Source of the DNA: a virus
Strand: one strand, 5' to 3'
Length of the DNA: 64,000 bases
Virus record (IMG/VR): IMGVR_UViG_3300009157_000001
Span: 1-64,000 of that record
Shown: positions 36,658-61,189 of the stretch, piece by piece
Position numbering within the stretch: position 1 is the first letter of the stretch
Layout of the letters: each line of letters begins with the position of its first letter
Program-made: the position numbers and the translations under genes
The notes under the pieces: generated by a model
The model's input: the letters and a program-made list of their open reading frames with translations, nothing else
The model's database searches: none
Told to the model about the DNA's origin: nothing

Positions 36658-37665
36658 TTACAAATATACTCCTTCCTTGATAAATCTATAAGGAAGTTTA
36701 TAATTTCTGGACTCATAATGGTATTTTGCTGCTTCTAATAGATGAGTCAATCGGAGCTCCCACTTAGTTACTGTCTCAGGACTTACCAGGAAAGGATAGA
36801 CTTGATTATACTTGTCTATTACTACAAATCTGAACTCTACTTTATAATCATCCGGGTTTCCTGTACAGTACTTTGCCAGCATCATATAAACCACAGATTG
36901 TATACAGTAGTTAAAATACTCCACAGATTCTGGGAAATCTACCAAAGACTTACCAGTCTTCTTCAGATCATTTATCTTAATAGTCTTATTCTCATGATCT
37001 ATAACACAGTTATCTATAATCCCTTTTAGTCCAAATGGATAATCAGTAAGATCCATTTGAGAGAGACTCTCATTGATTATGATAAGACTTTTAGTTGACT
37101 CACTGTCTAATTTAAGAAGATCCACAACTGCTTCATTTTCTTTAACTACAGATACAGACTCCTCACACCTCTCCATTATTTCAGCATCCAGGATAATCTT
37201 CCTTTCACTTTTCTTCAAGAAATCAAAGTATACCTCTGAATCCTGGGTTATTATCTTATCAAGTCTTTGTTTATCTGTCTTAAGTGATTGGTGCAGGTTC
37301 ATTTGTAGGAGCATCTCAAGGATCTCTGGCTCATATCCTGCCAGACTATCTCTCTGAGAACCTATTATTTCTAACTCCTGCTTATATTTGAAATAAACTG
37401 AATCAATTACCTTCTTTGTATTTTCACTTGGTACCGATCCCTGCATTATTATAAACTGCTTATCAAAACTCTTATCATCCAGGAGCTTACAGTGAATCAC
37501 TTTACCTTCAACAAGGTGGGATTCTGTAGACTCCTCCTTTTTCCTAAGGATGTAATCCTTATAAAATAGGTTTGGGGCATAATTAAGCCTACTCAATGAT
37601 GAGTAGCTAAAATAAAAAGGCTTGGAATAGAACTCTTCTTCCAGGGCCACTATGTTATCATTCAT
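36658..37665 (-). CDS. PD-(D/E)xK exonuclease (RecE/DUF3799-like)
   Basis: FSYSSL...GKVIHC...KGIIDN...INDLKKT...Y.IQ...Y; start placed at MNDNIV. Confidence 0.8.
   Translation of the reverse strand: MNDNIVALEEEFYSKPFYFSYSSLSRLNYAPNLFYKDYILRKKEESTESHLVEGKVIHCKLLDDKSFDKQFIIMQGSVPSENTKKVIDSVYFKYKQELEIIGSQRDSLAGYEPEILEMLLQMNLHQSLKTDKQRLDKIITQDSEVYFDFLKKSERKIILDAEIMERCEESVSVVKENEAVVDLLKLDSESTKSLIIINESLSQMDLTDYPFGLKGIIDNCVIDHENKTIKINDLKKTGKSLVDFPESVEYFNYCIQSVVYMMLAKYCTGNPDDYKVEFRFVVIDKYNQVYPFLVSPETVTKWELRLTHLLEAAKYHYESRNYKLPYRFIKEGVYL
36661..36668 (-). promoter_or_regulatory. Bacteroidota -7 promoter element
   Basis: TATATTTG on - strand, 5 nt before the ATG at 36655. Confidence 0.45.
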
Positions 37666-38752
37666 CGTGTTCCTCCTCTTCTGGTTCTGGAATCCTTTCT
37701 TCAAGAATATGCTCTAGCTCTTCATCCTCCCGGTCAACCACATCTGAAAGCACCTCACTTGTTGGAACTACTGACTTGACTCTAAAGCTATTTTCTCTAA
37801 TATCATTCTGAATTTCCTCTGCTACTATACCCATAACAGTTCTCAGAACCTCTTTGGTCAGAAGCTTCTTCTTTCTTAGTATAGAAATAATCCTATCTGA
37901 ATTAATCCTGTGAATTTCTCCTTTAATATCCAAAAACTCTATGAGAGCCTTAAAATTCACATGGTGCCGGGTATTACAGTCATATATAGGATTGCCATAT
38001 TCCTTGAATAGTAGAAGTAGCCAGATACAAGACTTCTCATAATCAGAATTAGTCATGATTTCCAGAGCTATCACATGATTATCTTTATCATCACTACTTA
38101 GCATAGTCTTAATTTCATCATACATCTCCCTGGTCATAACATTTGTGTTGATAGACTTGAGAATATCATTTTGATGAAAGTATCTACCTTCAGGATCCAG
38201 ATACTCAAGGAACTTCTCCAAGGTTCCTTTCTCTTGTTTAAAGAACTCGTAAAGATCATAGGTCTGTTCCATCTCAATACTTAAGGTCTCATCTATTATA
38301 CAACTATCTGTGGAACCTGTAAGTATAAAGGAGGAGTCAAGTTGTTTAATTACTCCCCTATGTTTCATATGATTAATAGTACCTTCTCCAAAGAATTTGG
38401 AAATAAACTGATTGTATATGTCCACTGGTACTTGATACTCATAGGAGTTTTGTATAAACCCTTCCAGGTACTTATCTATCCCAAAGATAGCATTAGCCTT
38501 GTCAGGATCTCTTACTACACTAACTTTGTACTTTTCACAGTAATCTTTTATCTTAAATCTGGGTACAGTACAATCAGGCAAGAAGTGAATTTTATCTCCT
38601 TCTTTTGGTGTATATCCTGACTTAAACTTAAATTCTTGTTTCTTACCCGTATAGAGAAGTTTAATCCCACCTTCTACAGTCTTCTCCTCCTGATCAATAT
38701 CATCAACAACATAGACTCTTTGAAAATCACTCAGTTTTAACATATTGAGCAA
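37658..38752 (-). CDS. MoxR/VWA-cluster protein (BRCT-like segment plus helical S-x-D motif)
   Basis: 364 aa; resembles the adjacent 350-aa gene (GDKIHFLP vs GDKVFILP; VVRDPDKANAI vs RVTDIEKATLI). Confidence 0.6.
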   Translation of the reverse strand: MLNMLKLSDFQRVYVVDDIDQEEKTVEGGIKLLYTGKKQEFKFKSGYTPKEGDKIHFLPDCTVPRFKIKDYCEKYKVSVVRDPDKANAIFGIDKYLEGFIQNSYEYQVPVDIYNQFISKFFGEGTINHMKHRGVIKQLDSSFILTGSTDSCIIDETLSIEMEQTYDLYEFFKQEKGTLEKFLEYLDPEGRYFHQNDILKSINTNVMTREMYDEIKTMLSSDDKDNHVIALEIMTNSDYEKSCIWLLLLFKEYGNPIYDCNTRHHVNFKALIEFLDIKGEIHRINSDRIISILRKKKLLTKEVLRTVMGIVAEEIQNDIRENSFRVKSVVPTSEVLSDVVDREDEELEHILEERIPEPEEEEHDE

Positions 38753-39779
38753 ACTTTTGGTTTATTGTTAGTTTCACATTATAGAACTTGTTCTCGGATC
38801 TCTCTTTGATCTCCTCTATTATTTCACCAGAGAGCTTAGAGAAGAGCTCAGTAGTGAGAAGTTTCTCATCACATAGATATTCTGCAAAGTTTTCCTCATC
38901 TAATTTCGAGAGCTGCCAGATATCTACTTTTCTTAAAAAAGCCTTTCCTATCTTGTCTCTTACTGAATAAGTAATTATTCCTGGAATACCATGTTCCGTA
39001 GATAGTTTCCATATATAATACATAGACTTTCTAACATCGCACTGCCAGAGGATATGTTTAGCTACCAGATGATCTGCTTCACTTTTGCTTTTAAACATAG
39101 CTCTTACAGATTCATAGGAGTTCTCATCCAGGACAGTTGACAAGATATTGTTTTCCATCACTGCTCTATCCAGAACTATAGGTACTTTATGAATAAGCAC
39201 TCTCTCAAGTACTTTAAGTCCCAGGGGACGTACTCCCCATACAGTATCACTCAAATAGTTACCTACTCTGGTGTGGTTCCACAGCCGTCCTGAGGAATCT
39301 ATTCTTGCTATCTTAGCTCCTTCTTGTGACAGCAGATAGTCTCGGGCGGTTCCTTTGATCTCAAACTGGTAACTTCTTTTAATTAATTCAATATCCCCGG
39401 ATCTGTAGCTACCCACAAGAGTAAAGGCCAGACAGGTCATCCTTGGCTCAGTACACCTATGTAAGATACTTCCATTACTTATTATAAGAGTTGCCTTCTC
39501 AATATCAGTTACTCTGGATGCACCTAGTTTTTTAAGTTGCTCTCTATAGTCTCTTTCTATAAACTGACTTCCCGGAAGTATGAATACTTTATCACCACTT
39601 ACTATCTTTCGGGTACCATCTCCATGAAGAGATTTCTCTATGGTTATATACCCTTCTTTATTTGTCTGGTAAACTGTATTTATCTTTTTATCCTTACCTG
39701 ATCCTTGTATAAAATACTTAGGTACAAGGTCAAGGTAAGGGGAGAGAGTCTCCTCTCTCCCTTCTTTAACTTCTGTCAT
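38727..39779 (-). CDS. MoxR/VWA-cluster protein, paralog of the 364-aa gene
   Basis: 350 aa; ATGA-coupled to the AAA+ gene; LKKLGASRVTDIEKATLII is BRCT-like. Confidence 0.6.
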   Translation of the reverse strand: MTEVKEGREETLSPYLDLVPKYFIQGSGKDKKINTVYQTNKEGYITIEKSLHGDGTRKIVSGDKVFILPGSQFIERDYREQLKKLGASRVTDIEKATLIISNGSILHRCTEPRMTCLAFTLVGSYRSGDIELIKRSYQFEIKGTARDYLLSQEGAKIARIDSSGRLWNHTRVGNYLSDTVWGVRPLGLKVLERVLIHKVPIVLDRAVMENNILSTVLDENSYESVRAMFKSKSEADHLVAKHILWQCDVRKSMYYIWKLSTEHGIPGIITYSVRDKIGKAFLRKVDIWQLSKLDEENFAEYLCDEKLLTTELFSKLSGEIIEEIKERSENKFYNVKLTINQKFAQYVKTE

Positions 39780-41116
39780 TTTACTGCCATCTCTACCACC
39801 TTTTTATCGGTCATCAATTTTTGCCATTTTTGCTTATTTCCATTAAGCAGAGTTTTAATCATATGATAGTTCAGATCATCAGTAAAGATATCAGGGTCTG
39901 TTACCAGTCTTACAACTCTCTTACTCACTGCATCACTGATTGAGTTCTTCTCTGCATAAGTCAAAGAGTAGTTCATAACCCTGGTTGCCAGGATCGATGC
40001 TATGTCTGCCCTGTACTCAGTTTTGGTACCTATACATGACCTGAGTTCTCCTATAATATAAGTTTCATTCTCATGTAAAAGAATATCCTCAGGCTTCACC
40101 AATTTGTCTAACTTATTATTAATAAACAAGGTAAACATCTGGGTAAACTCCTGACCAACAGAACCTTCTCCTAATTGAGAGATCCTGGACAAGTCCTTCT
40201 GGAAATCTTGTATAGAAAAGATAGAATTGAAGAAGTTGGTAATACTTCTGGGATTTACTTCTTCTTTAACCAATTCCGGGTGTAGTAACAGAAAGTTAAT
40301 ACACCTACCATCAATCCCTTCTCTTTCTGCCCACTCTGCCCAACATTTTATATCAAAGACCAGATTCAGTCTTGTATACCGGGTCTTTTGAGCAATATCC
40401 ATGCTGTTGACCAAGTAGTTTCCTGAGTCAGGATTGGATGAAAGGATTATATGCCAGTCTTTAGGTAACTTCCAGGATACATACTCTTGCTGGTCAATGA
40501 TGTCCATACATGCTTGAATCATACGGACATCGGCCCGGGTATAGTCATCAATAAGGAAGATATATCCTTCTCCTTTGTCTGCAACCCAAGGAGGGGGACA
40601 GTAGTCCATTCTTTTATTACCAGTAAAGGTGTATCCGAGTTTAATGTACTCTCCAAGAGCATGTTCATCAACCCAAATACAATCAGAAGATGCTTCTATT
40701 ACTTCTACTTTTGCAACAGCAGTCTCTTCTTTTGGTACCTCTTGTTGTACAACAGGAACCTGGACAAGCTTTCCATCAATGAGCCGGGCAACAGTTTTGG
40801 CTGCGGGTTTAATAGGAACACTCTTTACTTCTTTCTTTTCAGATACTATACCTGCTTCTTTACACATCTGGAACTGCCTGATAGGAAAACCACACAAGTC
40901 TCCCAGCTCCTCCAATTGACTTAGAGAGAGCTTCTGGAAATTAAGGTTCATTTCCTGAGCTATTTGTTTTATGCACGAAGTCTTTCCAAGACCTGCCGTA
41001 CCCTCAACCTCAAAAGTTATGGGCTTCTTTCCTCTTTCTTGCAAGAACCTATTGTTCTCTACATTATACTTTATTAGCTCCTTGAGCTCCTTGATGTTAA
41101 GTGTTACTTGACTCAT
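39776..41116 (-). CDS. MoxR-like AAA+ ATPase
   Basis: Walker A GTAGLGKT, Walker B FLIDDYTRA, SSNP, NPRS; adjacent to a VWA gene. Confidence 0.85.
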   Translation of the reverse strand: MSQVTLNIKELKELIKYNVENNRFLQERGKKPITFEVEGTAGLGKTSCIKQIAQEMNLNFQKLSLSQLEELGDLCGFPIRQFQMCKEAGIVSEKKEVKSVPIKPAAKTVARLIDGKLVQVPVVQQEVPKEETAVAKVEVIEASSDCIWVDEHALGEYIKLGYTFTGNKRMDYCPPPWVADKGEGYIFLIDDYTRADVRMIQACMDIIDQQEYVSWKLPKDWHIILSSNPDSGNYLVNSMDIAQKTRYTRLNLVFDIKCWAEWAEREGIDGRCINFLLLHPELVKEEVNPRSITNFFNSIFSIQDFQKDLSRISQLGEGSVGQEFTQMFTLFINNKLDKLVKPEDILLHENETYIIGELRSCIGTKTEYRADIASILATRVMNYSLTYAEKNSISDAVSKRVVRLVTDPDIFTDDLNYHMIKTLLNGNKQKWQKLMTDKKVVEMAVK

Positions 41117-41134
41117 AGTTTAGTAAAGTGGTTA

Positions 41135-42445
41135 TTAATTAAGTTTAATGGTATGGCCTGGAAGGTGCTTATGATCCTTGGACTTTGTTGAGAGAACCCA
41201 AAGAATTCTTCCTAAGGGCTTTTCTGGAGCAGGTGCTTCACCATCTGTAAGAAATATACAACAGGTATACTTTCTTCTCTGCTCGTTGTAATACTGACAG
41301 AGAGGAGAGAAGTCGGTACCCCCTCTTCCTACAATTTTGATATCCTGATCTCTTCTATAAAGACTAATATCACTTATTGCAGCATCTGTCTGAGCCACTG
41401 TGACTTCAGCACCAGTTCTATGGATATGATCTATCTCTTTAAAGAACTCTACCAGTTCATCATTAGAGACTGATCCGGACGTGTCCACGGCAACCAGAAT
41501 ATGCTTCTTAGGCTTGATCTTAAGGCCCGGGTTATCCTCAAACCTCTTGTTGAACTTTCTCCTGAGCTTCTTTGTATAAACCCGGGTAGATCCTCCTGCA
41601 AAACGCCTAAGATACCCTCTCCAGTCAAATTTAGGAGGCTCCGGATTTTGAAGAGCTTTAATATAATCACTCATCTCTCCAGGAACAGTCCCCCTGCTCT
41701 TCTCTACCTGCTCAGCAACAGCTTTTAACTGGTAGTCAAGTTGAGACTTAAGTAACCTCTTTGTTGCATCATCCAGTCCTTCAAACTCACTCCAATCATG
41801 ATCACAAGGACCAGGTACTCCATCTTTCAGATCTTTTATAAGATCTCTAAGATTAGAATGACCCGGAGACTGTTTCTTTGACTTAGCCTCTTTTAATAAC
41901 TTGTCATAGTAGTAATCAGCTCCTCTTTTTAATTCCAGGTTAAGATCTTTGAAATCTTCAATGTATACTCCTCTTGGAGGAATATCCTTGCAGGCATTCA
42001 TATAATCTTCCCGGGTTATCTGTTTAGATAAGAACTTTACTTTTAGGCCTTCTACAATAGGATTCCACTTAGCATCAAACTGCTCTTTGGTCACATCTTT
42101 TGCAGGAAGATACAGATCTTCTATGTACTGATTCACACAGATATCAATTGCTATAGCATAGACTTCTTTCTCAGGATACTTACCACTCATACCCATTTCT
42201 ATATGAAAGAAGCATATATGCAAAAGCTCGTGCTTGAGAATTCCGGTTTTCCATGGATCCAGAAGTCTATCCCAGAAGCCCTCTCCGATAGTAAGCTGGT
42301 AGTTTATACCATTCTTACTTACTCCTGCAGTAGGAAAAGTGGAATGCCAGACTTTGTTTAAACCTATGAGAAAAAGCCCCCAAAAGGGCTCTTTCAACAT
42401 AAGGGTTTTACTAGCCTTAGCCAGGGATTCACTTCTGCTTCTCAT
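41135..42445 (-). CDS. Metallopeptidase-like plus VWA domain protein (DUF2201 type)
   Basis: KHELLH; MIDAS VDTSGS; GRGGTDF; LTDG. Confidence 0.9.
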   Translation of the reverse strand: MRSRSESLAKASKTLMLKEPFWGLFLIGLNKVWHSTFPTAGVSKNGINYQLTIGEGFWDRLLDPWKTGILKHELLHICFFHIEMGMSGKYPEKEVYAIAIDICVNQYIEDLYLPAKDVTKEQFDAKWNPIVEGLKVKFLSKQITREDYMNACKDIPPRGVYIEDFKDLNLELKRGADYYYDKLLKEAKSKKQSPGHSNLRDLIKDLKDGVPGPCDHDWSEFEGLDDATKRLLKSQLDYQLKAVAEQVEKSRGTVPGEMSDYIKALQNPEPPKFDWRGYLRRFAGGSTRVYTKKLRRKFNKRFEDNPGLKIKPKKHILVAVDTSGSVSNDELVEFFKEIDHIHRTGAEVTVAQTDAAISDISLYRRDQDIKIVGRGGTDFSPLCQYYNEQRRKYTCCIFLTDGEAPAPEKPLGRILWVLSTKSKDHKHLPGHTIKLN

Positions 42446-42866
42446 CTTCTTTCAGTGTTATTTTTATATCTACTTTCTCAATAAAATCATACCCCCATTC
42501 CAGGAGATTATCTTTCACTTTGATAGCAAACTCATCAAACATAAAAGCAACCTGTTCAATAGGATATCCATTCTTTCCCAGAATAGTTATAATTTTATTC
42601 CAGGTGGGGTTATCATCCCCTTTTATCCCAAGACCTTCTACTTTTTTCAGAGTGTTTGGAGCATTCTCTTTCCATAAGGAAGCACCAAGCTCAGACTTTT
42701 TGTGAAGAAGTAGGATTGGTCCAATAGAGTTCTTAAAATCACAGTTCTCAATCGACTGAAGACCTACTACTTTGTCTTCCTGATTTGAGGAGATGAGAAG
42801 TTGAAGTATCCCATCAAAGTTGCTTGAGTTAATTACTACCTTTTCAGTTGTTGTTTTTGTTGCCAT
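42429..42866 (-). CDS. MoxR/VWA-cluster helical protein
   Basis: 145 aa; N-terminus aligns with the C-terminal module of the 364- and 350-aa proteins. Confidence 0.6.
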   Translation of the reverse strand: MATKTTTEKVVINSSNFDGILQLLISSNQEDKVVGLQSIENCDFKNSIGPILLLHKKSELGASLWKENAPNTLKKVEGLGIKGDDNPTWNKIITILGKNGYPIEQVAFMFDEFAIKVKDNLLEWGYDFIEKVDIKITLKEDEKQK

Positions 42867-42867
42867 A

Positions 42868-43209
42868 TTAATCTTCCAGTTTTTGAGTTTTTAACATCCA
42901 TTTCTTGGGGGTTTTAAGGTTATCCACCCATTCCTTTGCACATGGGAGATATCCGTCACAGTCTTCACGGACATGTCTTTCTCCCACATAGCGAGTATAG
43001 ACGGTCTTCCCGTCTGAATTTACAAAAGAGGCCCCGAAGAGCCTCTCCATTTCAAATATACCTTCTGAGTGATGTCTGAACATCCTATGCACAGAATGTG
43101 ATATCCAACTTTTGGTTTCATCTAGCCAATTGTGCAGATGAATGTAATCTTGTTCCTTGCCTCCCCATTTCTTGACTGAGGATTTTGCATGCAATAAAGG
43201 ATGAGCCAC
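42868..43209 (-). CDS. DUF6915-like protein
   Basis: HPLLHAKSS..KWGG...H.WLDETK...HR..RHH...GERHVRED. Confidence 0.75.
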   Translation of the reverse strand: MAHPLLHAKSSVKKWGGKEQDYIHLHNWLDETKSWISHSVHRMFRHHSEGIFEMERLFGASFVNSDGKTVYTRYVGERHVREDCDGYLPCAKEWVDNLKTPKKWMLKTQKLED

Positions 43210-43583
43210 TATCTCTCTCCTCCTTTCAGCATTCCTTCATGATTATAAGTTTCATACTGCTCTATCCTGATATTATTCTCAACAGTATACTCTCCGGAAG
43301 GAACTTGTATTTTAACAGTACCCCTTCCTCCTTCATTATTGATCCAATCTTCAATAATATCAGTATTAAGAATATGATCATAACAGTAGTCATGTACAAA
43401 GTCTACTATACTCTCAGAGATTTCTTGGATGAGATCCTCTCCCTCTTTATTCTCAAAGAATGTTTCATCTATCTGTCCACTGTCCCCTTCTCCAGAATAT
43501 TCTACTTTTATTTGTTTCACTCCAAGATCCTCAAGTTTGAACATAAGACCTTCCCAGTCTAAATTCTCATCTCTACCCCTCAT
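43209..43583 (-). CDS. DUF6878-like protein
   Basis: YSGEGDSGQI...DWINNEGGRG. Confidence 0.7.
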   Translation of the reverse strand: MRGRDENLDWEGLMFKLEDLGVKQIKVEYSGEGDSGQIDETFFENKEGEDLIQEISESIVDFVHDYCYDHILNTDIIEDWINNEGGRGTVKIQVPSGEYTVENNIRIEQYETYNHEGMLKGGER

Positions 43584-44101
43584 GAAAACTTTCTTCTTGC
43601 ATATTCGGACATAAGAAGAGCATCAACAATACCTTCATGGGCATTCTTGGATTTCTCGGACCCTCTCAGGTCCAGATCTGGAAAAAGTCTCTTTGCTGAA
43701 AGAAGTGCCATTGCTTTAGTGTCTTTAATCATAGTCTTTTTGCTTTTACTTGGTTTACTTATTTCTTGAACACCTTGGAATAGTTCCTTTTGCCAATCTT
43801 TAGCATTTACTTTAGTATAAGGAAGTCCACAGGCAATTACAGCCATCTCAGTTGCCCCGGCCACATGACCAAAGGTAAAAGTAGCCCCTGCAGCACTCCC
43901 AAAAATAGCTCTTAGATTCTCAAATACTACATGACATGGTTTATCTTTGAACTCTGACAAAATCTTGTACAGAGCATGATAATCCACCTCATTGTTTATT
44001 AGGGGTATGGTTACAAGAACAGTACTAAGTGGAGATTGTATTGCAATACCACCTTTTTTTCCTATATCTACACCTATGAAGGTCTTATCCATACATATCA
44101 A
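43580..44101 (-). CDS. RuvC-like Holliday junction resolvase
   Basis: IGVDIGKKGGIA, VVFE, FTFG, DALL. Confidence 0.85.
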   Translation of the reverse strand: MICMDKTFIGVDIGKKGGIAIQSPLSTVLVTIPLINNEVDYHALYKILSEFKDKPCHVVFENLRAIFGSAAGATFTFGHVAGATEMAVIACGLPYTKVNAKDWQKELFQGVQEISKPSKSKKTMIKDTKAMALLSAKRLFPDLDLRGSEKSKNAHEGIVDALLMSEYARRKFS

Positions 44102-45068
44102 AATTTAAGGATTCTTTGAATACCCCGGCAAGTCTTCTTCTGACTTTGGTTATGCCATGGGTCTTTACTGCATCTGCTATGTCCTTCTCCATACTAAGTT
44201 GGATATAAGGAAGAGCATAAATTTCCTTGTACTTCTTCATTGCAAGAAGTCCGGATTTATCATTGTCCAGAAGAGTGCACACTATAGGATAGACCTCTTT
44301 GTAATACTCAATCTTTTCCTGAGGTATTAGGGTATTCTCACTATCCGGAGCTACTACTTCTAGGTTCCAACCGGTCTTGAGCAGACAAAGAGCATCCTTA
44401 AGTGAAGCACAAATTACCAGGATTGGTGAGGTAAAGGTCAGTTGATCACTTCCCTGGATATAACTCTTTACTTTGAGAAACTTCTTTTGTAAGATGGTAG
44501 GTTGATATATCTTATACAAGGTTCCTTCCTTATCAAAATACCCATAGATATAATGTCTGCAGATATTTATCTCTTCCCCGGTCCCATCTCTTCTCATAAG
44601 ATATGATTCCAGGGGTACAACATTATATTTCTCAAGAATAGTAGATGTTATACCATACTTAGTCCAGTATCTTTTGTCCAAGACATTCCAACCTCTTTTC
44701 TTAAAGTCTATAACCCGGTATCTTCCCTGGAGCCTCATCTCAGGAAACCGATATTCCCCATCCTGGATGAACCTTTCATAGTCCTCAATTATCCGGGTAG
44801 TAGCTTCGTCCTTAGACCTTAAGTCAAATAGGAGTCTTACCAGTTCCACTGCTGTTCCCTTGTGACCCGTAGAGAAGTCATTAAACATATACCTTCCTAC
44901 TTTTCCATTCCAGTATATACAGAATGAAGGATTGCTTTCCCCGGGATTAAACAAAGACTTCATCTTTATATCCTGTCCAGAGAGCTTCTCAGAAAGACTG
45001 CAGTACCTTTCAAATATCCACTCTGTGGGAACTTCGTGGAGACCCGTTACAATTTTAGTACTTATCAT
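44085..45068 (-). CDS. DNA primase (Toprim)
   Basis: SLF...E.NPSF...FNDFSTG; SLKD; APDSE; LDNDKSG; KDIAD. Confidence 0.85.
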   Translation of the reverse strand: MISTKIVTGLHEVPTEWIFERYCSLSEKLSGQDIKMKSLFNPGESNPSFCIYWNGKVGRYMFNDFSTGHKGTAVELVRLLFDLRSKDEATTRIIEDYERFIQDGEYRFPEMRLQGRYRVIDFKKRGWNVLDKRYWTKYGITSTILEKYNVVPLESYLMRRDGTGEEINICRHYIYGYFDKEGTLYKIYQPTILQKKFLKVKSYIQGSDQLTFTSPILVICASLKDALCLLKTGWNLEVVAPDSENTLIPQEKIEYYKEVYPIVCTLLDNDKSGLLAMKKYKEIYALPYIQLSMEKDIADAVKTHGITKVRRRLAGVFKESLNFDMYG

Positions 45069-51777: not shown

Positions 51778-51779
51778 GA

Positions 51780-52782: not shown

Positions 52783-52790
52783 TAAATTTG
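52783..52790 (+). promoter_or_regulatory. Bacteroidota -7 promoter element
   Basis: TAAATTTG ends 4 nt before the ATG at 52795 of an isolated + strand gene. Confidence 0.55.
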
Positions 52791-52794
52791 CTCC

Positions 52795-53088: not shown

Positions 53089-53491
53089 GGTTTATATTGA
53101 CCAGATCTCCTGCTTCTATACAGGCCTGGATAAATAGACCAAGTTCTTCTACACTGCACTTGCTTAGGGATTTGCATATTATATACATCTCTCCTTCAAG
53201 TTCTTTCTTGACACAGAGTCCAGCTTTCTTCTTAATTTCGAGTTTAAGATCTTCAAAACTGTACCCCATCTCTGGGGCTAGTAGTCTTACACACTTATGG
53301 GCCTTGGCCAGTTGAGCCAAGGTCTTATTCTCAGTATTAGCATCAAAGAAGGCATCTACTACCTGACCTTCTTCTAATAAGTTGACAAAGTCTGTATACC
53401 TGATATCCCCACCACTCATAGCATTGGTGAGTTTACCATTCTCCTTCTTCAGGAGTATATGAAGCATGTTATCCTTTTGCTTCTTCCCCAT
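53081..53491 (-). CDS. NinB-like protein
   Basis: KTLAQ..H...LA..MGY...K...KSLSKCSVEELGLFI. Confidence 0.55.
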   Translation of the reverse strand: MGKKQKDNMLHILLKKENGKLTNAMSGGDIRYTDFVNLLEEGQVVDAFFDANTENKTLAQLAKAHKCVRLLAPEMGYSFEDLKLEIKKKAGLCVKKELEGEMYIICKSLSKCSVEELGLFIQACIEAGDLVNINLR

Positions 53492-53996
53492 CTTGCTGAG
53501 TTGTGGCTTTGTTAGAATTGAGCCTGATCACTAACTGACTTATCTCATTCCTAAACTTCTGGATATCTTTCTCCAGGTTTGCTATTTTCTTATTCTTGTT
53601 AGTGATTTCATTCTTTAGAGAAGTTACATACTGATCCTTTTTGAACTGGTCCATTTCCTCTTTGGAAAAATGGATCTTAAACTTCTCTCCAACAGCTTTC
53701 TCTAGTACTTTCTTTTCTTTCTCAAGCTCTTCTATCTTCCTTCTTAGTTCTACAAGTTCACCATGTTGAGTCTTTACTATAACTCTATCTGGAAGTTTTT
53801 GAGGCTCAGTATTTTGATCTGCTTCTTTCCACTCTACATATATCCTTACAATACCTTTTTCTTTATGTATCCAACTCATTGCATGCCTTACATCACTATC
53901 GAGGTGGCATCCTAAAATAGGGAAGAGTTGATATTTAGACACATTATTTTTGGTAAGATGCCAACTATAATCTATACCATTAGGAGTCTTCTCCAC
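53469..53996 (-). CDS. Coiled-coil protein
   Basis: 175 aa with long heptad C-terminal half. Confidence 0.55.
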   Translation of the reverse strand: MEKTPNGIDYSWHLTKNNVSKYQLFPILGCHLDSDVRHAMSWIHKEKGIVRIYVEWKEADQNTEPQKLPDRVIVKTQHGELVELRRKIEELEKEKKVLEKAVGEKFKIHFSKEEMDQFKKDQYVTSLKNEITNKNKKIANLEKDIQKFRNEISQLVIRLNSNKATTQQDGEEAKG

Positions 53997-54186
53997 GATC
54001 CAGTATTACACCAATAGCAGAAGCCCCTCTCGGACTAGATTTCTCGTCAAAGAGAACCCTATCATCCATCTTAATCTTATCTATGCACCCACTTACATGA
54101 GTGAATATATCAGGTCCACCATCATCAGGAGTGATGAACCCGTATTTTTTGTCCTGGTTAAAGAATTTAACTTTTCCCTTCCTCAT
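53980..54186 (-). CDS. Cold-shock domain protein (CspA family)
   Basis: GKVKFFN..KKYGFI...DIFTHVS (RNP1/RNP2); start at MRKGKV. Confidence 0.9.
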   Translation of the reverse strand: MRKGKVKFFNQDKKYGFITPDDGGPDIFTHVSGCIDKIKMDDRVLFDEKSSPRGASAIGVILDRGEDS

Positions 54187-54796
54187 CTTCTTCTGTTTTT
54201 TGTTGTTCTTTTCTGGTAAGCCAGACAGGAAAGACACTTTGGTCCATTCCCATTTCTCTGGTAAATTCTTCTACAAGTTTACACATATCACTTCTGTTAT
54301 ACAAATCCTTTCTTGTAGTTGCAGCAAGATGAAACCTCTTCTTAGGAATTAATAAAGCAACTGATTGTTTCTCACAGCATTCCTTACAGAGCTTCTGCTT
54401 GGGATATCCCTCAAAATCATTACTACAGAGTCTACACTGTAAGGCAGAGTGACCGGAATAAAAAGGGGTAGGACTTATCTTAGCCTCAACTATAACTCCC
54501 TTATCCAGTTCATCATTCCTAATAATGGGCATCCACTGATGATACTTTATTTTTACCTCAGGACCATCTGTTGGAAAAGGAACAAAGACCGGATAAGCTA
54601 ATCTATCCAGTTCCATAATCTCTTCCCCCTGTACAGTATCTTCTCTTAAGAAATACCAATTCCCAGACGTAGCCAGATGAGTTAGGGTACCTACTGAGAG
54701 ACTTTTCTTCTGCCAATCAAATCTTATAACCCGGAGACCCTCAATGATTTCCTCCTTCTTGTAATCTCTGCTTTCTATATGTCCACTTAGTATCAT
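54167..54796 (-). CDS. Hypothetical protein with CxxC...CxxC
   Basis: CRLC...CKEC. Confidence 0.55.
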   Translation of the reverse strand: MILSGHIESRDYKKEEIIEGLRVIRFDWQKKSLSVGTLTHLATSGNWYFLREDTVQGEEIMELDRLAYPVFVPFPTDGPEVKIKYHQWMPIIRNDELDKGVIVEAKISPTPFYSGHSALQCRLCSNDFEGYPKQKLCKECCEKQSVALLIPKKRFHLAATTRKDLYNRSDMCKLVEEFTREMGMDQSVFPVWLTRKEQQKTEEDEEGKS

Positions 54797-55368
54797 CAGG
54801 TTTTGATTCTTGGCATTATTATAGCAACTCTTTCTGATACTGAATACTCCTTAAAAGTAAGAAGTACACTATCTTTTGCTGACTTAAAAGTACATATAAG
54901 AGCACCTTCCTTATCATCAAACCCAAGGACTTCCTGACAAGCAAGAAGAGCTTTTGGATTAATACTTATGCTCTTATCCCAAATAATCTTAGTTCTTGTC
55001 TTGACCAATCTCTCTTTTATAAGTTTGTCAATAGAGTTTACAAACTTCTGGGAGGGAAGATCTGTCTCCTCTGGTTCATACTTCCAATCAACCCCCTTTT
55101 CTATTCCTATAATACATTTGGTATAAATAAAAGGAACATAAGCCCTCTTGTTTTTCTGATAAAGTTCCTGGTAAATATACCAAGGAACTGATGCAAAGTT
55201 CAGACAAACCGGAAGATCATCCATTTTCATTCTTACTGCCATAAAACCATTGGTTGCATAAGCATACTTATCTGTGAAATGAACCTTTGTCATGATAGGT
55301 CTGATATCATCTTTGCTACATACTTTGTGTAATGGTATATCAAAGATACTTTCTATTCTTTTTGCCAT
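54796..55368 (-). CDS. Beta-clamp-like fold protein (partial similarity)
   Basis: SKDDIRPIM..V...YATNG and C-terminal IIMP resemble DnaN domains 2-3. Confidence 0.5.
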   Translation of the reverse strand: MAKRIESIFDIPLHKVCSKDDIRPIMTKVHFTDKYAYATNGFMAVRMKMDDLPVCLNFASVPWYIYQELYQKNKRAYVPFIYTKCIIGIEKGVDWKYEPEETDLPSQKFVNSIDKLIKERLVKTRTKIIWDKSISINPKALLACQEVLGFDDKEGALICTFKSAKDSVLLTFKEYSVSERVAIIMPRIKT

Positions 55369-55949
55369 AGTTTATACTTGTTAATTAATCTGTGATTGTA
55401 ATTAGTGCTCATTCTGATATTATCACTGAATCCATCGTGTTGAATAGCAACCATAGGATAGCATAGATGACTAAGATAATTCCCGTGTCTTTTACTCCCT
55501 ATCCACTTATCCAGGTTAGTATTCTCATCAGCTCCTAGAAAAGTATCATAAAACCGGTGACTTACCATATAACAGTGAAGTCCACTGAATTCTCTGACTT
55601 GGGCCAGTTCTTCTGTGATTGGATATATCTTACCTTCATATACTCCCGATAAATAGATATTCCAGTCAACTGGTAGATCCTTTTTAAGGTTAAGGAATCT
55701 CTGGTAAGATCCTTCAGATGTAAATTTTATATCATCCTCCCAGATGTTTACTTCAGACCACCCTTCCTGTTTAGCCCATCTAACACAGTTTTTATGTGCC
55801 TGGGAGATGTTTACCACAGGTTTCTTAGAAGTATGTACTGAAGGCATCAGGGCATAATCACTTATACCCTGCTCCTTCAGTTCTTTCTCAAGGGTCTCCC
55901 AGCGATCTTTTCTAAGAGGATTGTGAATTATTAAGACCTTAGTTGACAA
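55353..55949 (-). CDS. Glycosyltransferase family 25-like
   Basis: R.DR; AH...A...IWEDD; LP.DW.IY; HCYMV. Confidence 0.75.
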   Translation of the reverse strand: MSTKVLIIHNPLRKDRWETLEKELKEQGISDYALMPSVHTSKKPVVNISQAHKNCVRWAKQEGWSEVNIWEDDIKFTSEGSYQRFLNLKKDLPVDWNIYLSGVYEGKIYPITEELAQVREFSGLHCYMVSHRFYDTFLGADENTNLDKWIGSKRHGNYLSHLCYPMVAIQHDGFSDNIRMSTNYNHRLINKYKLWQKE

Positions 55950-56199
55950 GTTCTATTGAGGTTCCTTTAGGTAATGCATTGTAGTCCTCACCACTTACAT
56001 CAGATTCCCAGGTCTTACCTATATCCGGTGAGCTAGGATTTTTCTTATCGTGTAATACTGTTACATATGTTGCAGAAGCAGAACCATCCTCCTTCTTATC
56101 ATTGCTCTTGGTTACAAGTACAATTTGTCCGTACTTACTTACCATCAATCTGGGGAACTCCCCTGTGTTCTTCTCAATTGGTTTATAGGTTACTTGCAT
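55939..56199 (-). CDS. Hypothetical protein
   Basis: Start at MQVTYK after the leader AAAACCAATAATAATT; the same leader precedes the gene starting at 57265. Confidence 0.6.
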   Translation of the reverse strand: MQVTYKPIEKNTGEFPRLMVSKYGQIVLVTKSNDKKEDGSASATYVTVLHDKKNPSSPDIGKTWESDVSGEDYNALPKGTSIELVN

Positions 56200-56217
56200 A
56201 ATTATTATTGGTTTTAG

Positions 56218-56303
56218 TTGTGATGACTGGCATCGAACCAGCAACCTCCAGTCAGAAATGGGTTCAGAACTGACTGGTGCTCTACCAATTGAGCTACACC
56301 ACA
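56218..56303 (-). tRNA. tRNA-like element with extended anticodon arm (no assignable anticodon)
   Basis: Acceptor TGTGGTG/CATCACA; D arm GCTC-AATTGGTA-GAGC; 8-bp stem CCAGTCAG/CTGACTGG with 14-nt loop; T arm GCTGG-TTCGATG-CCAGT; ends A-CTA. Confidence 0.8.
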
Positions 56304-56310
56304 AACTTCT

Positions 56311-56646
56311 TTATATTTCCTCAATCTCAGCAGTTAGGCCGTTCTCAAGGAGTGCTTCACAAATAGGTAGGAGCTTGTCATAAGTCCCTCTCTTAACATC
56401 ACACCGACCATTATTGTGGACGATAAGAGCACACTGGTGCCCTTGATGAACCGAGTGTTTACAGTACTTGACTAAACACTCAATGACATGATCAAAAGAA
56501 TTGAAATCATCATTAATTAAAACAATAGACTTCTGTCTATCTTTCTTTTCTTTAACAATGACTTCTTCTTCATCCTGCCACTGAGGATTGAACTTAACCA
56601 GGAGAGGATCATCTCCTCTTCCTGGTCTTGGTTTTTCTCTTTGCAT
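56311..56646 (-). CDS. clpS: Clp protease adaptor ClpS
   Basis: IVLINDDFNSFDHVIECL...LIVHNNGRCDVKRG...GLTAEI; start uncertain. Confidence 0.85.
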   Translation of the reverse strand: MQREKPRPGRGDDPLLVKFNPQWQDEEEVIVKEKKDRQKSIVLINDDFNSFDHVIECLVKYCKHSVHQGHQCALIVHNNGRCDVKRGTYDKLLPICEALLENGLTAEIEEI

Positions 56647-56938
56647 TTTTCCTAGGTTTAGATTTAACCTTCTTTTTCTTGAGTTTTGGAAAGTAGGCCT
56701 TGGCAAATACTTTGTTGTAGTCAGCAAGCATTTTCCTGGGATCTACCTCTATGCAAGAACTAGTATTCTCCCTTACTTTAAGTATAGAAGCTTTACCACC
56801 ATCTGGAGAAGTTCTCATTATAACTCCTTCAAGATACACTCCTCCATAAGAATCATCCCCAACATGACTTACCTTTATAGGCCCTCTATAAGGAAGCCAG
56901 TATACCTTACCTATCTTAAACTCTTTTTTCTTAGCCAT
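56609..56938 (-). CDS. Basic hypothetical protein (weak CarD N-terminal resemblance)
   Basis: FKIGKVYWLPYRGPIKV; K/R-rich tail; TAAATTTG at 56946-56953 upstream. Confidence 0.5.
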   Translation of the reverse strand: MAKKKEFKIGKVYWLPYRGPIKVSHVGDDSYGGVYLEGVIMRTSPDGGKASILKVRENTSSCIEVDPRKMLADYNKVFAKAYFPKLKKKKVKSKPRKNAKRKTKTRKRR

Positions 56939-56950
56939 AATTTTACAAAT

Positions 56951-57265
56951 TTAGTTAATTCTCCAGATACTTGTTCCTTTGTACTTTTTATTCATATCCT
57001 GAATTGCCCTACAAGCATAATCACAGGATTTCATGGTTTTGTACTTCTCCCGGAATTCTGACTTCAGTTTACTTACCAAGTAAGATACTGTTTGTTTATT
57101 AGGAATCTGTGTTCCAGGAACAAATACACTCTTAAATTTATCCACAGGAAGAGCCAGTAGACTTTCTTTGAGATAGTTCATTATCTCAGGACTCATAGAT
57201 CTGGGTCCTGTAAGAGATGTGTCCTCCAGTATCTGGAAGGGGTTTTCTTTGCTTAGTTTAGTCAT
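56951..57265 (-). CDS. Hypothetical protein
   Basis: 104 aa with A-rich leader. Confidence 0.6.
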   Translation of the reverse strand: MTKLSKENPFQILEDTSLTGPRSMSPEIMNYLKESLLALPVDKFKSVFVPGTQIPNKQTVSYLVSKLKSEFREKYKTMKSCDYACRAIQDMNKKYKGTSIWRIN

Positions 57266-57280
57266 AATTATTATTGGTTT

Positions 57281-58366
57281 TTAGTATTCAACATAAGTGA
57301 TTTTTGATTCATCAAAGTCCTCTAAGGCACTTGCCACCCACCGGGTGTCAACTGTGTCCCTATAACAGAGGATATGAACTGTTGCTGTATCTTTTGGGTT
57401 CAGAGAAAGCATTCTACCTATCCTCTGAGCAGTTTTGGTATTATTCCCATAAGAATGAAGAAGAATCCCTTCCTTTAATTCAGGGATTGTAATGCCCTCA
57501 TTCAACTGTAATACACAGGAAAGTCTGATTATTTCCCCACTCTTAAATTTCTGAAGGTTCTCCTCAGAAGTAGGATTCTTACTATGATAACTATAAGGAC
57601 ATAACCGGTCTGCTTGTTCCTGGGTATTAGCAAAGAGTATGCATTTATTCTCAGACTTAAAAAATATCTCTTTTGCAATTACCTCCTTACTAGGAAATCC
57701 CATAAGAGCTTTCATTCTCATAATAGACATAATCTGTTGTTCCTTGGCAGTAGAGGCATTGTCCAGTCTACCACTCCAATACTCATAAGATTTTAACTCT
57801 GAGGTATACCAGGATTTCCCCCGGACTTCTACTTTGAGTGTATTATCTGTAGCTAATGAAAGGTTGTGTATAATGATCCTGTAATCATTTAGGATCTTAT
57901 CTGCTACTGCTTCTTTGACTATGTATTTATAGACAATAGGACAGTACATATCTACCATCTTTCCTTTCTCCGATACAGGAACCCTTGGAGGAGTACCAGT
58001 CAATCCTACAATCTTCCCCTTAAAGTTAGACAACCACTCATCATGATTATACAATAAATTATGACACTCATCCAGATAAACTATATCATAATCCAAAGTC
58101 TGTTTGGTCAAGGAAAGATATGTGGTAAATGTGATATGATCCAATAAATGAACCAGATCAAACTTCTCAGCATCATCTTTCCAGCTCTGGAATATAGACA
58201 ACTTCGGGGCAACTACCAGAACCCTTAAAGTATCTGAGTAGTGGTTGTCCATATGTCTGAGCCCTACAAGAGTTTTACCAACCCGCATTGACACAGCTAT
58301 AGTGCCTCTCTCAACTTTAGACATTGCTTCTAATGCCTCATCTTGCACTATGTTTCTTGTTTTCAT
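57281..58366 (-). CDS. Superfamily 2 helicase (DExH)
   Basis: MRVGKT, DECH, TGTP, LNEG, QRIGR. Confidence 0.9.
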   Translation of the reverse strand: MKTRNIVQDEALEAMSKVERGTIAVSMRVGKTLVGLRHMDNHYSDTLRVLVVAPKLSIFQSWKDDAEKFDLVHLLDHITFTTYLSLTKQTLDYDIVYLDECHNLLYNHDEWLSNFKGKIVGLTGTPPRVPVSEKGKMVDMYCPIVYKYIVKEAVADKILNDYRIIIHNLSLATDNTLKVEVRGKSWYTSELKSYEYWSGRLDNASTAKEQQIMSIMRMKALMGFPSKEVIAKEIFFKSENKCILFANTQEQADRLCPYSYHSKNPTSEENLQKFKSGEIIRLSCVLQLNEGITIPELKEGILLHSYGNNTKTAQRIGRMLSLNPKDTATVHILCYRDTVDTRWVASALEDFDESKITYVEY

Positions 58367-58808
58367 AAGTTACCTTAATTATATACCTTTTCCTAAAAGG
58401 ATAGTTCCATCCTCGAGCTCTTTTAATACTAGTTGCAGAACATCTCAAGTATCTAGCAGCCATCTCCATACTAGGAAAATACATCTGATTCATACTTTCC
58501 TTATCAAAACAACTTACCAAATATCCATCAGTCTTGACTGGCTTTACATAAACTTTACAAGGACAACCTAATTTATAGATAAGGTGGTTATTGAATTTTG
58601 GTTGCTTTCTTCTACCTTTTCCAAGAATGATTTGGGAAATCATAGATTGAATACTTTTTCTAGGAAGATTATACATCCCAAGTAAATATCTAGAAGCATC
58701 ATTCTGAGATTCAGCCTTATACACCTCCTTACACTGAAGAGTATAGACAGTAACTGGAATTTTCTTGTCATCATGAGAAGGATATTTAAGAGTACCTTCT
58801 GCTTTCAT
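58338..58808 (-). CDS. NUMOD1-like DNA-binding repeat protein
   Basis: ESQNDASRYL and FPSMEMAARYL...SI repeats; no nuclease motif seen. Confidence 0.55.
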   Translation of the reverse strand: MKAEGTLKYPSHDDKKIPVTVYTLQCKEVYKAESQNDASRYLLGMYNLPRKSIQSMISQIILGKGRRKQPKFNNHLIYKLGCPCKVYVKPVKTDGYLVSCFDKESMNQMYFPSMEMAARYLRCSATSIKRARGWNYPFRKRYIIKVTYENKKHSAR

Positions 58809-58934
58809 CCTGAATCTGATTCTTATCTTTTTTCATAGTACTTTGTATTAAGGTCCTTTCCAGTTTCCTTACTAAGGTCCTTCTCTGTTCAGTCATTTTC
58901 TGGCAAGAGCCAAAGCTTTATACTTATTTGTAGA

Positions 58935-59010
58935 CAAAGTAGTAGCTACCTGGATGGTTAGAATTGTCATGATTGTAATTCACATCATTCAGTACCTAGC
59001 TAGAGGTAGT
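58935..59010 (-). repeat. DGR template repeat TR-B
   Basis: 76-bp non-coding copy of 59087-59165; 15 of 16 substitutions are at TR adenines (- strand); AAT/AAC/TAC-rich. Confidence 0.92.
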
Positions 59011-59018
59011 ATAAAAGC

Positions 59019-59525
59019 TTAATCTAAGTAATCTATCCATACATCCATAAAAGTAGAAACAGCAAATTTACACTTTTCTTCAGTCTCAAAGTAGCAGCCA
59101 CCCGGACGGTTAGAAACGGCACGAGTGAAGGAAATCCCAACATTCAGCACCCAGCCAGAGGTAGTCTTCTTAAACCAAGGATAATACTTCTTCTGATCAC
59201 CATTATTGAAGTCAGCAATCCACTCACCATTTAGAATAGTGGATATATTGTTAATTCTATGTAATGCAAACTGTCTCTTTCTCTGATCCTCAGGTAAAAA
59301 AGAGAAGTGTTCTAAAGTAAGTTCTTCAAATCCACCTTCTTCACAAATATCCTGGTAGTCTTTTATCCTACTAACAAGATCAATCTTGCTCAGAAGAGAC
59401 TTTGCAGATCTCTTATTAAGACAATGACTAGTCCCACGAAGAATAGTAGCAGCAAGATACATAGACTGCGGATCTTTACTTGTAACCATTTCTTTTAAAG
59501 AATTATAGTTCTGATTTGTCTTCAT
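59019..59525 (-). CDS. DGR target protein B
   Basis: 168 aa; contains VR-B; paralog of target A (LN..W...F....QKKY.PWF.KT.SGW); ATGA-coupled to the RT stop. Confidence 0.88.
   Translation of the reverse strand: MKTNQNYNSLKEMVTSKDPQSMYLAATILRGTSHCLNKRSAKSLLSKIDLVSRIKDYQDICEEGGFEELTLEHFSFLPEDQRKRQFALHRINNISTILNGEWIADFNNGDQKKYYPWFKKTTSGWVLNVGISFTRAVSNRPGGCYFETEEKCKFAVSTFMDVWIDYLD
59087..59165 (-). repeat. DGR variable repeat VR-B
   Basis: 79 bp encoding TTSGWVLNVGISFTRAVSNRPGGCYF; one extra codon relative to TR-B. Confidence 0.9.
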
Positions 59526-60476
59526 ACTGAATACTTTTTTCTTAGATTCTTACTATCACAATACTTAAGCCATCCATTGTAGGAATTAAGAGATGCTCTG
59601 TTCTTTCTGTACTTTACCATCTTTATAAACCTCTTCTTTATTCCTTTTCTGAGAAGAATATGTGTATGATAAAACTTGTACCCCACAAAATCTATTCCTC
59701 TGGAACTAACCGGGAATACCTGATGATTGAAATTAACCAGAAGTTTTAGATTATTCCATAAATACTGCTTAATTTTTACCAAAAGATCATGTAACTCCTT
59801 CTTGTTTGATCCCAGGATAACTATATCATCACAATACCTAAAATAGTATTTTACCCCCCCCTGAACTACTCTTAATCCAATGGTCAAAGTAAGTAAGATA
59901 GAAATTGGCCAAGTATTGTGAAAGATAATTTCCGATTGGTATACCCGGAGCACTGTTAATTATCTCATCTAGAAGTAATAAGAGCCTGGGATCTTTGAAC
60001 TTTTTCCTAAGAAGAACTTTCAGAATATCATGATCTATAGAAGGATAGAACTTCTTTATATCAAGTTTTAGACAGTAAGTTGTTCCCTGGACATCCAAAA
60101 GAGATTTTCTTAAAGTTCTCCAAACCCCATGTATACCCCTACCTTCTATACAACTGTAGGTATCTGCTGTAAAAATGGACAGGAATATAGGCTTTAGAAT
60201 ATTCATTATTCCATGATGAACTATCCGATCAGGATAATAAGGAAGTCTATAAATCTCTCTTTTCTTAGGCTCGGAAATTGTATAAACCGTATAAAGAGAG
60301 GTCTTGTACTCTCTCTTATTCAGAACATGATAAAGATTTATGATATTGTCTTCCTTATTCTTGTCATGGAGAATCACTCCATACTGTCTGGACTTTCCCA
60401 GTCTAGCTTTGGAATCTGCTAACTTGAGATTAGCTATAGTACATATTTTTGAGTAAAGATTTCCAACTCTTTTCAT
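59522..60476 (-). CDS. DGR reverse transcriptase, split by a +1 frameshift near 59851-59875
   Basis: PYYPDRIVHH, YSCIEGRG, LKLDIKKFYPSIDH, GIPIGNYLSQ (DGR-type SQ) in frame 1; YFRYCDD and IDFVGY in frame 2; 955 nt, i.e. 317 aa if one base is removed. Confidence 0.93.
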
Positions 60477-60581
60477 AGATTCACTTCACTTAAGATCTTC
60501 TTCCCAAAGATTTTGGTACCAAAGCTCTTGTTACTAATGTTTGTCTTTTACCTAGAGGTAAGATCATACTACACATAAAGA

Positions 60582-60650
60582 AGTGGAGACTGAAGCTCAT
60601 GTTAGCATTATCATCATTCCAATTAGTATAAGAATTCACTCGCTAACTAG
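60582..60650 (-). repeat. DGR template repeat TR-A
   Basis: 69-bp non-coding copy of 60745-60813; 16 of 17 mismatches are at TR adenines. Confidence 0.95.
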
Positions 60651-60670
60651 CTGAGAATTAATAATATGAC

Positions 60671-61189
60671 CTACTCAGGAAGCCACTCTATATATTGTGG
60701 AAGGAAGATGTTTCCTCCAAATAGAGCAAGCTCCTCAGATTTATAGTGAAGACCGAAGCCCACGTCAGCACTACCATCAGCCCAACCAGCACAAGAACTC
60801 ACCCGCCAACCAGAAGAGGTTTTCTCAAACCAGGGAAAGTACTTCTTCTGATTTTTGTCCAGGAAATTTGGTATCCATCCTTCATTAAGGGCTAGAATCC
60901 CATACTGAAGTTTGGCCTGTCCATTTTGTGATATCTGATACTTGTTCTTGGGGTTTAAAAAAGGCAAGATATCTGACTCTATAACCCCGGTCTCATCATA
61001 AGCATCGGATATTGATTTGATCCTTTCCATAATAGGAATCTTACCAAGAAGACTCCTTGCCATTCTCTCTTCTATATGAAGAGAATTACCTCTCAAAAAA
61101 CAAGCAGCTAAGTATCTTGACTGAACATCTTTAGACTCAATCAGTTCCTTTATTCCCTGAATTGTTTTTATTTCTGTGGTTTTCTTCAT
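60671..61189 (-). CDS. DGR target protein A
   Basis: 172 aa from MKKTTE (ATGA overlap with the upstream gene); contains VR-A. Confidence 0.88.
   Translation of the reverse strand: MKKTTEIKTIQGIKELIESKDVQSRYLAACFLRGNSLHIEERMARSLLGKIPIMERIKSISDAYDETGVIESDILPFLNPKNKYQISQNGQAKLQYGILALNEGWIPNFLDKNQKKYFPWFEKTSSGWRVSSCAGWADGSADVGFGLHYKSEELALFGGNIFLPQYIEWLPE
60745..60813 (-). repeat. DGR variable repeat VR-A
   Basis: Encodes GWRVSSCAGWADGSADVGFGLH; ungapped match to TR-A. Confidence 0.93.

Follow-up and report, generated by a model that had tools for sequence, protein, structure and literature searches.

In jumbo phages of group 2.2, a MoxR AAA+ ATPase has been described with a metallopeptidase-fused vWA partner, and a function in virion assembly was proposed for these proteins (Iyer et al. 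2021, PMC7824862). MoxR-vWA 'VMAP ternary' conflict systems, in which sensors are diversified by diversity-generating retroelements (DGRs), have been proposed in bacteria (Kaur et al. 2020, PMC7159879; Dore et al. 2024, PMC10907252). As the sections of those papers devoted to them describe, these are systems of cellular defence in which C-type-lectin/FGS targets are fused to vWA or located beside MoxR, together with a VMAP protein (PMC7159879, PMC10907252). We analysed a DGR cassette and an AAA+/zincin-VWA gene set (the module) in the IMG/VR virus record IMGVR_UViG_3300009157_000001. The window, that is the whole stretch of DNA analysed, covers positions 1 to 64,000 of this record and is the first 64 kb of a complete phage genome of 126,634 bp with direct terminal repeats. 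The two DGR targets, A and B, each begin with an ungapped segment of 24 amino acids (aa), the hairpin, which resembles the first repeat of an unnamed ARM/HEAT-like domain carried by three proteins of the module. Whether the hairpin serves on these targets as a portable protein-protein contact unit for a common partner is, in our estimate, an evenly balanced question.

As in the jumbo-phage pair, the AAA+ gene of the module stands beside a gene for a VWA protein with an N-terminal zincin-like peptidase. Unlike the jumbo-phage pair, as far as the passages on that pair go (a helical domain is not mentioned in them), the pair in this phage lies among replication genes, namely a polB-like gene and a PD-(D/E)XK nuclease gene, and is always accompanied by two to three proteins with the ARM/HEAT-like domain. 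The likeness to the VMAP ternary systems, so far as those are set out in the sections cited, is that a DGR-diversified ligand-binding protein would be tied to MoxR and vWA, the tie being putative here. The differences from them are that the carrier is a phage, that the targets are small and do not look like lectins, that the DGR lies 17 kb from the module and that a hairpin of 24-28 aa is the sole link. The accessory module proteins had no match in Pfam, NCBIfam or PADLOC, among searches that included none directed at VMAP-C. The locus differs from the known systems in its phage setting, in the portable hairpin, in the unnamed domain and in the small target family.

All five hairpin segments are encoded on the minus strand. 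They are located at 61094-61165 in target A (residues 13-36 of the open reading frame (ORF) 60671-61201), 59439-59510 in target B (residues 6-29 of the ORF 59019-59525), 38054-38125 in a 364-aa protein (residues 210-233), 39048-39119 in a 350-aa protein (residues 221-244) and 42750-42821 in a 145-aa protein (residues 16-39). The initial annotation had described a helical motif at the N-termini of all five proteins. This placing was correct for A, B and the 145-aa protein and incorrect for the 364- and 350-aa proteins, in which the segment starts at residues 210 and 221. The conserved residues that it had pointed out were recovered, Ser at position 11 and Ala or Gly at position 20 being present in all five segments, and it was right that the three cluster genes border the AAA+ gene (39776-41116) and the gene for DUF2201 zincin-VWA (41135-42445). 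The notion of a shared motif stood for A and B, in which the likeness spans about 28 aa only; in the three cluster proteins a whole domain of about 130 aa is homologous, not an isolated tag. The signature of the hairpin is roughly a hydrophobic helix, an S-x-D turn and an Ala seven residues past the Asp. Of 149 family members, 119 have Asn at position 16, 131 have Glu at position 22 and 130 keep the turn Asp.

BLASTP aligned the 364-aa protein with the 350-aa protein over 135 aa (E 1e-9) and with the 145-aa protein over 92 aa (E 7e-7). The AlphaFold2 model of the 364-aa protein (pLDDT 92.7, pTM 0.85) has a beta-rich, BRCT-like N-terminal half and an all-helical C-terminal domain. In this model the hairpin corresponds to helices 208-219 and 223-234, the first two of the C-terminal domain. 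VIA-align matched residues 203-293 of the model to ARM/HEAT/VHS repeats (Z 5-6) and residues 49-203 to BRCT domains (Z about 5), matches that are weak and indicate a fold class at most, and Foldseek found no match at E<=1e-3 in the PDB for this model or for the model of B. Like HEAT and ARM repeats, the hairpin is a helix-turn-helix of about 12+12 residues that stacks into a solenoid, with Z 5-6 to AP-2/AP-3, UNC-45, importin-alpha, beta-catenin and Gcn1. Unlike the members of those families, none of the five proteins matched a Pfam HEAT or ARM model at E<=10. The spacing of the hairpin Asp and the conserved Ala also appears to differ from the classical HEAT consensus. The HEAT-like character proposed for the hairpin at the outset agrees with both the models and the structural matches, and the 24-aa motif is the first helix-turn-helix repeat of the ARM/HEAT-like domain.

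A profile of the 364-, 350- and 145-aa proteins was searched against 1.84 billion representatives. The search returned 828 clusters at E<=1e-3 and 343 at E<=1e-10, which define a domain family that no Pfam, PHROG, NCBIfam or PADLOC model covers. The members have two architectures, either about 350-460 aa in length with the domain at about residues 200-340, or a stand-alone domain of about 130-195 aa. The family profile gave 192 bits for the 364-aa protein, 108 bits for the 350-aa protein and 72 bits for the 145-aa protein. In 80 viral loci that were found via the family of the 364-aa protein, the AAA+ gene was adjacent in all 80 and the zincin-VWA gene in 78, in a constant order and with two to three domain proteins per module. 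The same gene order was present in all six loci found via the VWA protein, and likewise in locus L001. The reading frames of the domain proteins overlap those of their AAA+/VWA neighbours. The domain family is tied to the AAA+/zincin-VWA module as a fixed part of it.

Distant homologs of the zincin-VWA protein occurred in 61 GenBank phage records, including Bacillus PBS1-like, Vibrio, Moorella and N4-like phages (25-29% identity), and in phage FSL SP-058 the homologous pair is annotated as COG0714 MoxR-like. Neither the module region nor target A had a DNA or protein match among GenBank phages. A single-protein scan of viral contigs returned nothing for the 364-aa protein, and the same was true for target A. 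A literature search on DUF2201 in phages found nothing on this module, for which the unnamed domain offers no search term.

The three-sequence profile gave B 5.3 bits, below a false match in the reverse transcriptase, and would alone have led to rejection of the likeness between B and the domain; a deeper profile changed the outcome. Built from 150 family representatives and searched against the 180 proteins of the genome, it ranked B as the top match outside the family (13.9 bits, E 3.4e-4). A position matrix of 24 ungapped columns was made from 147 family members of other origin, with the window's own three left out. Among 36,192 windows of the genome, the three true members scored 61.4, 30.6 and 18.3 (the last being the 145-aa protein), B followed at rank 4 with +14.3, and then came a spurious ORF (-2.3) and A at rank 6 (-5.3). 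Decoys were taken from 3,339 ORFs of module-less phage loci (361,663 windows), the best of which scored -4.3. The identity of B to family hairpins had a median of 7/24 and a maximum of 11/24 (to P0113), within a family whose own median is 9/24 and 5th percentile 5/24; A had a median of 5/24, at the lower edge of the family spread. Between A and B the identity is 50% in the hairpin (12/24), 47% in the N-terminal extension and 34% overall. We counted A as a hairpin carrier because it is a paralog of B and is more similar to B in the hairpin than overall.

In the AlphaFold2 model of B (pLDDT 89.3), helices 2-14, 19-31 and 38-45 form a three-helix unit, of which the hairpin is the first two. This unit matched HEAT, ARM and TPR repeats with Z 5-6 and HEAT clusters of the ESM Atlas with TM 0.6-0.74. 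The B unit and the domain of the 364-aa protein had several PDB chains in common among their matches, and 9bba_A was matched over the same residues. From the sequence comparisons we conclude that the hairpin of B bears a real and family-specific likeness to the domain.

A and B belong to a widespread family of small DGR targets. A (176 aa, 60671-61201, minus strand) and B (168 aa, 59019-59525, minus strand) are paralogs (E 8e-31), and both matched phrog_11581 (E 2.3e-9 for A and 4.8e-14 for B). The variable repeat of A is located at 60743-60819 and its template repeat directly downstream of the gene at 60580-60656 (minus strand); the corresponding positions for B are 59082-59167 and 58930-59012 (minus strand), again directly downstream. 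Seventeen of 22 mismatches between A and its template fell at template adenines, as did 16 of 22 for B. The reverse transcriptase gene lies between the two targets. A family profile of 48 members gave 84 bits for each of A and B. About 125 members were found in 64 other viral loci, often two in tandem, and an intact reverse transcriptase adjoined a family member in 54 of these loci. The core of the family begins at about residue 48 of A and B. The target family had no structural match in the PDB and does not look like a lectin. Against BFVD, B matched only uncharacterised phage proteins. In other members the N-terminal extension is missing or is a different one of two helices.

The hairpin on A and B is peculiar to this phage among the relatives examined. 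It was not found in the approximately 125 relatives from the 64 other phage loci or in 12 metagenome loci, so that among more than 130 relatives of A and B only the two of this phage carry it. Relatives sharing the N-terminus of A and B were not found in viral, metagenome or protein collections. A word-indexed search with A gave one relative, and one with residues 1-56 of B returned only B itself. No other relative examined starts, as A and B do, with a diverged copy of the hairpin, and the two are the only proteins of this phage that have the hairpin without the domain.

Such hairpin-only proteins occur in related phages as well. Four complete related module-bearing genomes (G055, G062, G070 and G096) were scanned with 202,610 windows, and 11 proteins with the full domain and 13 with only the hairpin were detected. 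The latter numbered six in G070, five in G062 and two in G055. Two of them are SF1 Dda/RecD-like helicases of 552 and 562 aa, in which the hairpin occupies residues ~25-70 and the helicase core begins at ~74. Others belong to a family of 267/338 aa, or are small (68-120 aa) and carry the hairpin close to the C-terminus. Between the different architectures, BLASTP detected no likeness outside the hairpin region. Phages of this group have the hairpin also as a stand-alone unit, attached to proteins that are not related otherwise. Orthologs of the helicases or of the other hairpin-only proteins were not found in the phage studied here. In the related genomes, the hairpin-only genes lie 2-60 kb from the module, and for that reason the distance of A and B from the module genes (17-19 kb) is no argument against a link between the DGR and the module.

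A profile named A9 was built solely from the 13 hairpin-only proteins of the other genomes. In the present genome it ranked the 364-aa protein first and B second (9.0 bits, E 0.0074), ahead of the 350- and 145-aa proteins. We also asked whether the hairpin occurs equally in phages that lack the module. A9 matched none of 50 module-less records with A/B relatives (none of 20 among those at least 90% complete), compared with 33 of 34 module-bearing records; removal of the three source genomes left 30 of 31. Many of the matches in module-bearing records were the hairpins of the domain proteins themselves.

The spread of the hairpin over unrelated proteins, together with the likeness of B, makes a portable docking unit plausible. 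We propose, with about equal weight for and against, that the DGR targets carry a portable first-repeat hairpin as a contact unit for a common partner. The hairpin would have been captured from the first repeat of the domain, or would share common descent with it, and both paralogs would have retained it among their best conserved parts. Through it, the proteins that carry it would meet a single shared partner in the replication/MoxR-VWA module, where the DGR-diversified C-terminal surface of A and B could then act. Candidate partners are the MIDAS site of the VWA protein, which might read the turn Asp, the AAA+ protein, or the domain proteins themselves.

A number of points weigh against this proposal, and several of them are what convergence or chance would produce, that is, amphipathic helix-turn-helix units with a Ser/Asp cap that are alike in structure only, with neither partner nor descent in common. 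The likeness of A and B to the domain was not detected by plain BLASTP. The alignment of B to the domain profile comprises residues 3-30 only (profile positions 26-53), the rest of the domain being absent from both targets. In hhalign, B ranked first among the non-family proteins (P 0.0028, probability 11%) and the A+B pair had P 0.0066, the probabilities being 6-11% overall, and the domain profile found nothing against a profile of A/B relatives (P 0.17). A, scoring 1-3 bits in profile searches, is by itself not significant (3.2 bits in HMMER, matrix -5.3 as given above, hhalign P 0.052). Both targets keep Ser11, Asp13 and Ala20 and lack Asn16 and Glu22, having Ser at position 16 and Thr or Cys at position 22. 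Both the B unit and the domain look like generic alpha-solenoid repeats with Z of only 5-6. The third helix of B aligns to the two-helix N-terminal extension that many members of the A/B family already have, so part of the B cap may be ancestral to that family. On the side of distribution, G096 is complete and bears the module and showed no clear hairpin-only protein. The A/B family was absent from all 50 module-bearing records searched, four of them complete, and from all five of a separate search. The co-occurrence counts are not independent, because the module-bearing records are kin. The MoxR-DUF2201 pair of one N4-like locus had no such domain nearby and no clear hairpin, and hence the domain marks a subgroup of such pairs.

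Convergence is nevertheless unlikely in our view, with an appreciable chance of being right. The score of B is 18 bits above the best of all decoys and close to that of the true 145-aa member. The initial annotation had named, as an outcome that would count against its idea, a motif no better than generic HEAT-like helices; this margin over the decoys and the failure of every Pfam HEAT/ARM model to match speak for a more specific likeness. Relatives of A and B in module-less phages, about 125 in number, go without the hairpin, and in the kin phages the hairpin has demonstrably spread among unrelated proteins.

The distribution of the two gene sets may be explained in another way. DUF2201 was absent from all 49 records with A/B relatives that were searched; this and the absence of the A/B family from the module-bearing records indicate that the pairing of the DGR with the module is a single event in one phage. 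The hairpin could be a recombination remnant: part of a domain gene would have been joined to the 5' end of a newly acquired DGR target gene, where it would be neutral or at most a stabilising cap. A fusion of this kind is possible only where domain genes exist, so a remnant explains the single co-occurrence equally well; it would also fit the presence of the first repeat alone and the loss of the two conserved polar residues. We give it a small chance of being correct. Paralogs that are 34% identical overall have kept the hairpin at 50%, and B fits the positions conserved in the family better than the copies of its own phage, with 7/24 identities to the 364-aa protein (counted by eye) and 11/24 to P0113. 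Furthermore, kin phages retain many hairpin-only proteins.

The initial annotation had gone further and proposed docking of the hairpin to the AAA+ or zincin-VWA protein, with the DGR targets as hypervariable adaptors that would deliver target proteins, for example host defence proteins, for remodelling or cleavage. All that supports a portable contact unit also supports this model, to which we assign a slim chance. The domain proteins are fixed neighbours of the AAA+ and VWA proteins with overlapping frames, the VWA protein has DxSxS (MIDAS-type) and HExxH motifs, and the turn Asp of the hairpin is nearly invariant. The MIDAS domain of midasin (Rea1) docks on the UBL domains of Rsa4 and Ytm1 via a conserved acidic residue. 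The AAA+ protein here belongs to the same broad clade, has a MIDAS/VWA partner and is accompanied by a hairpin with an acidic turn, a likeness that would extend to mechanism by analogy only. DGR-diversified sensors that operate with MoxR-vWA have been proposed in bacteria, in the sections of the papers cited above (PMC7159879, PMC10907252), which also favours adaptors. Against this model, the helicases and many small proteins share the hairpin and fit a replication hub no less than a protease, the module needs no adaptors of the A/B type since it lacks A/B relatives in 50 of 50 records, and the cassette is 17 kb away with its reverse transcriptase frame broken in the assembly. A complex predicted for the zincin-VWA protein with full-length B scored 0.00 in both runs, a result that, control pairs not having been run, weighs on neither side.

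The helicases, the nuclease and the BRCT-like parts make a replication-linked hub at least as likely as a protease. A still wider version of the portable contact unit, which we consider quite improbable, is an address label that would recruit helicases and small early proteins to a hub of AAA+ protein, zincin-VWA protein and scaffold. The DGR, being wired into this hub, would let a hypermutable binding surface carry changing targets, which may be host proteins, to an ATP-driven machine for remodelling or cleavage, and would constitute a reprogrammable adaptor system of the virus.

Most of what is understood of phage DGRs concerns the diversification of receptor-binding tail proteins. A and B are small targets located in an early/replication block, and their family is common in uncultured phages. 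If the shared hairpin is an address, it would offer the first clue to the place of action of such intracellular DGR targets. The analysis also defines the unnamed family of 828 clusters as a fixed companion of a widespread phage AAA+/zincin-VWA pair. If the link is true, it would be a virus-side parallel to the DGR and MoxR-vWA sensors proposed for bacterial immunity.

The genes of the module are all encoded on the minus strand, in the order DUF6915, small domain protein, zincin-VWA, AAA+, one or two longer domain proteins and PD-(D/E)XK nuclease. The usual first gene, located at 42868-43209, encodes a DUF6915 protein of 113 aa (Pfam PF21866, E 1.6e-38); in most of the 80 related loci this gene precedes the one for the small domain protein. 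It is followed by the 145-aa stand-alone domain protein (42429-42866). The zincin-like metallopeptidase fused to VWA (41135-42445) matched DUF2201_N (PF13203) with 39.5 bits against a cut-off of 23.2 and DUF2201 (PF09967) with 59.7 against 26.4. It also matched PHROG 1314 (E 7.6e-53), which is labelled 'HNH endonuclease', as are several of its GenBank phage homologs; this label looks wrong, since the Pfam domains of the protein say otherwise.

The AAA+ ATPase, MoxR/midasin-like and 446 aa in length (39776-41116), matched phrog_1297 (ATPase, E 4.8e-29). Searched as a profile against PDB sequences, it matched only midasin AAA domains (E 3e-11, about 43 residues), and in the Pfam scan it scored 15.3 bits with AAA_3, below the cut-off of 27, and had no match to AAA_5. 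The name 'MoxR-like' is reasonable and loose, given that only midasin was found in the PDB and that the MoxR-type model of Pfam stayed below its cut-off. The protein is about 50 aa longer than its homologs (446 versus ~394-399 aa), and the extra length is a stretch rich in Lys, Val, Glu and Pro past the Walker A region. Among the 80 related loci, the AAA+ gene is split in two in 23 and the VWA gene in 6 (L070, L071 and others of L088-L167). The inserts measured about 1.1 kb in the two loci that were inspected. The split genes likely result from introns, inteins or homing-endonuclease insertions.

The 350-aa protein (38727-39779) and the 364-aa protein (37658-38752) each carry the domain at the C-terminus. 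The N-terminal halves of these long domain proteins contain a nearly invariant P-R-x-K motif and gave weak BRCT-like structural matches (7scy_K, XRCC1 and PARP4; Z about 5). The conserved downstream neighbour is a PD-(D/E)XK nuclease of 348 aa (36658-37704; PF12705, E 3.8e-5, and synteny), past which the polB-like gene is located further on.

The DGR reverse transcriptase is encoded by two overlapping frames of 212 and 143 aa (59522-60476, minus strand), and RVT_1 and phrog_1423 matched both pieces. The frames change at a run of eight G near 59860. Homologs elsewhere are single ORFs of about 320-330 aa. The split could reflect a slippery site, a true frameshift or an error of assembly in the homopolymer. 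Each target is followed by a template repeat of its own, in place of a single one for both, and the two repeats resemble each other. A third paralog of A and B (141 aa) is located outside the window, at 81778-82203 of the genome on the minus strand, and has a different N-terminal helical region. A phage homolog of ClpS, the adaptor of the host ClpAP protease, is encoded at 56311-56727 on the minus strand, 2.3 kb from B (PF02617, E 4.9e-16). At the other end of the window, positions 1-28869 of the plus strand contain a run of very large ORFs (1027, 1842, 3420 and 1871 aa), and the strand polarity switches near 28.8 kb.

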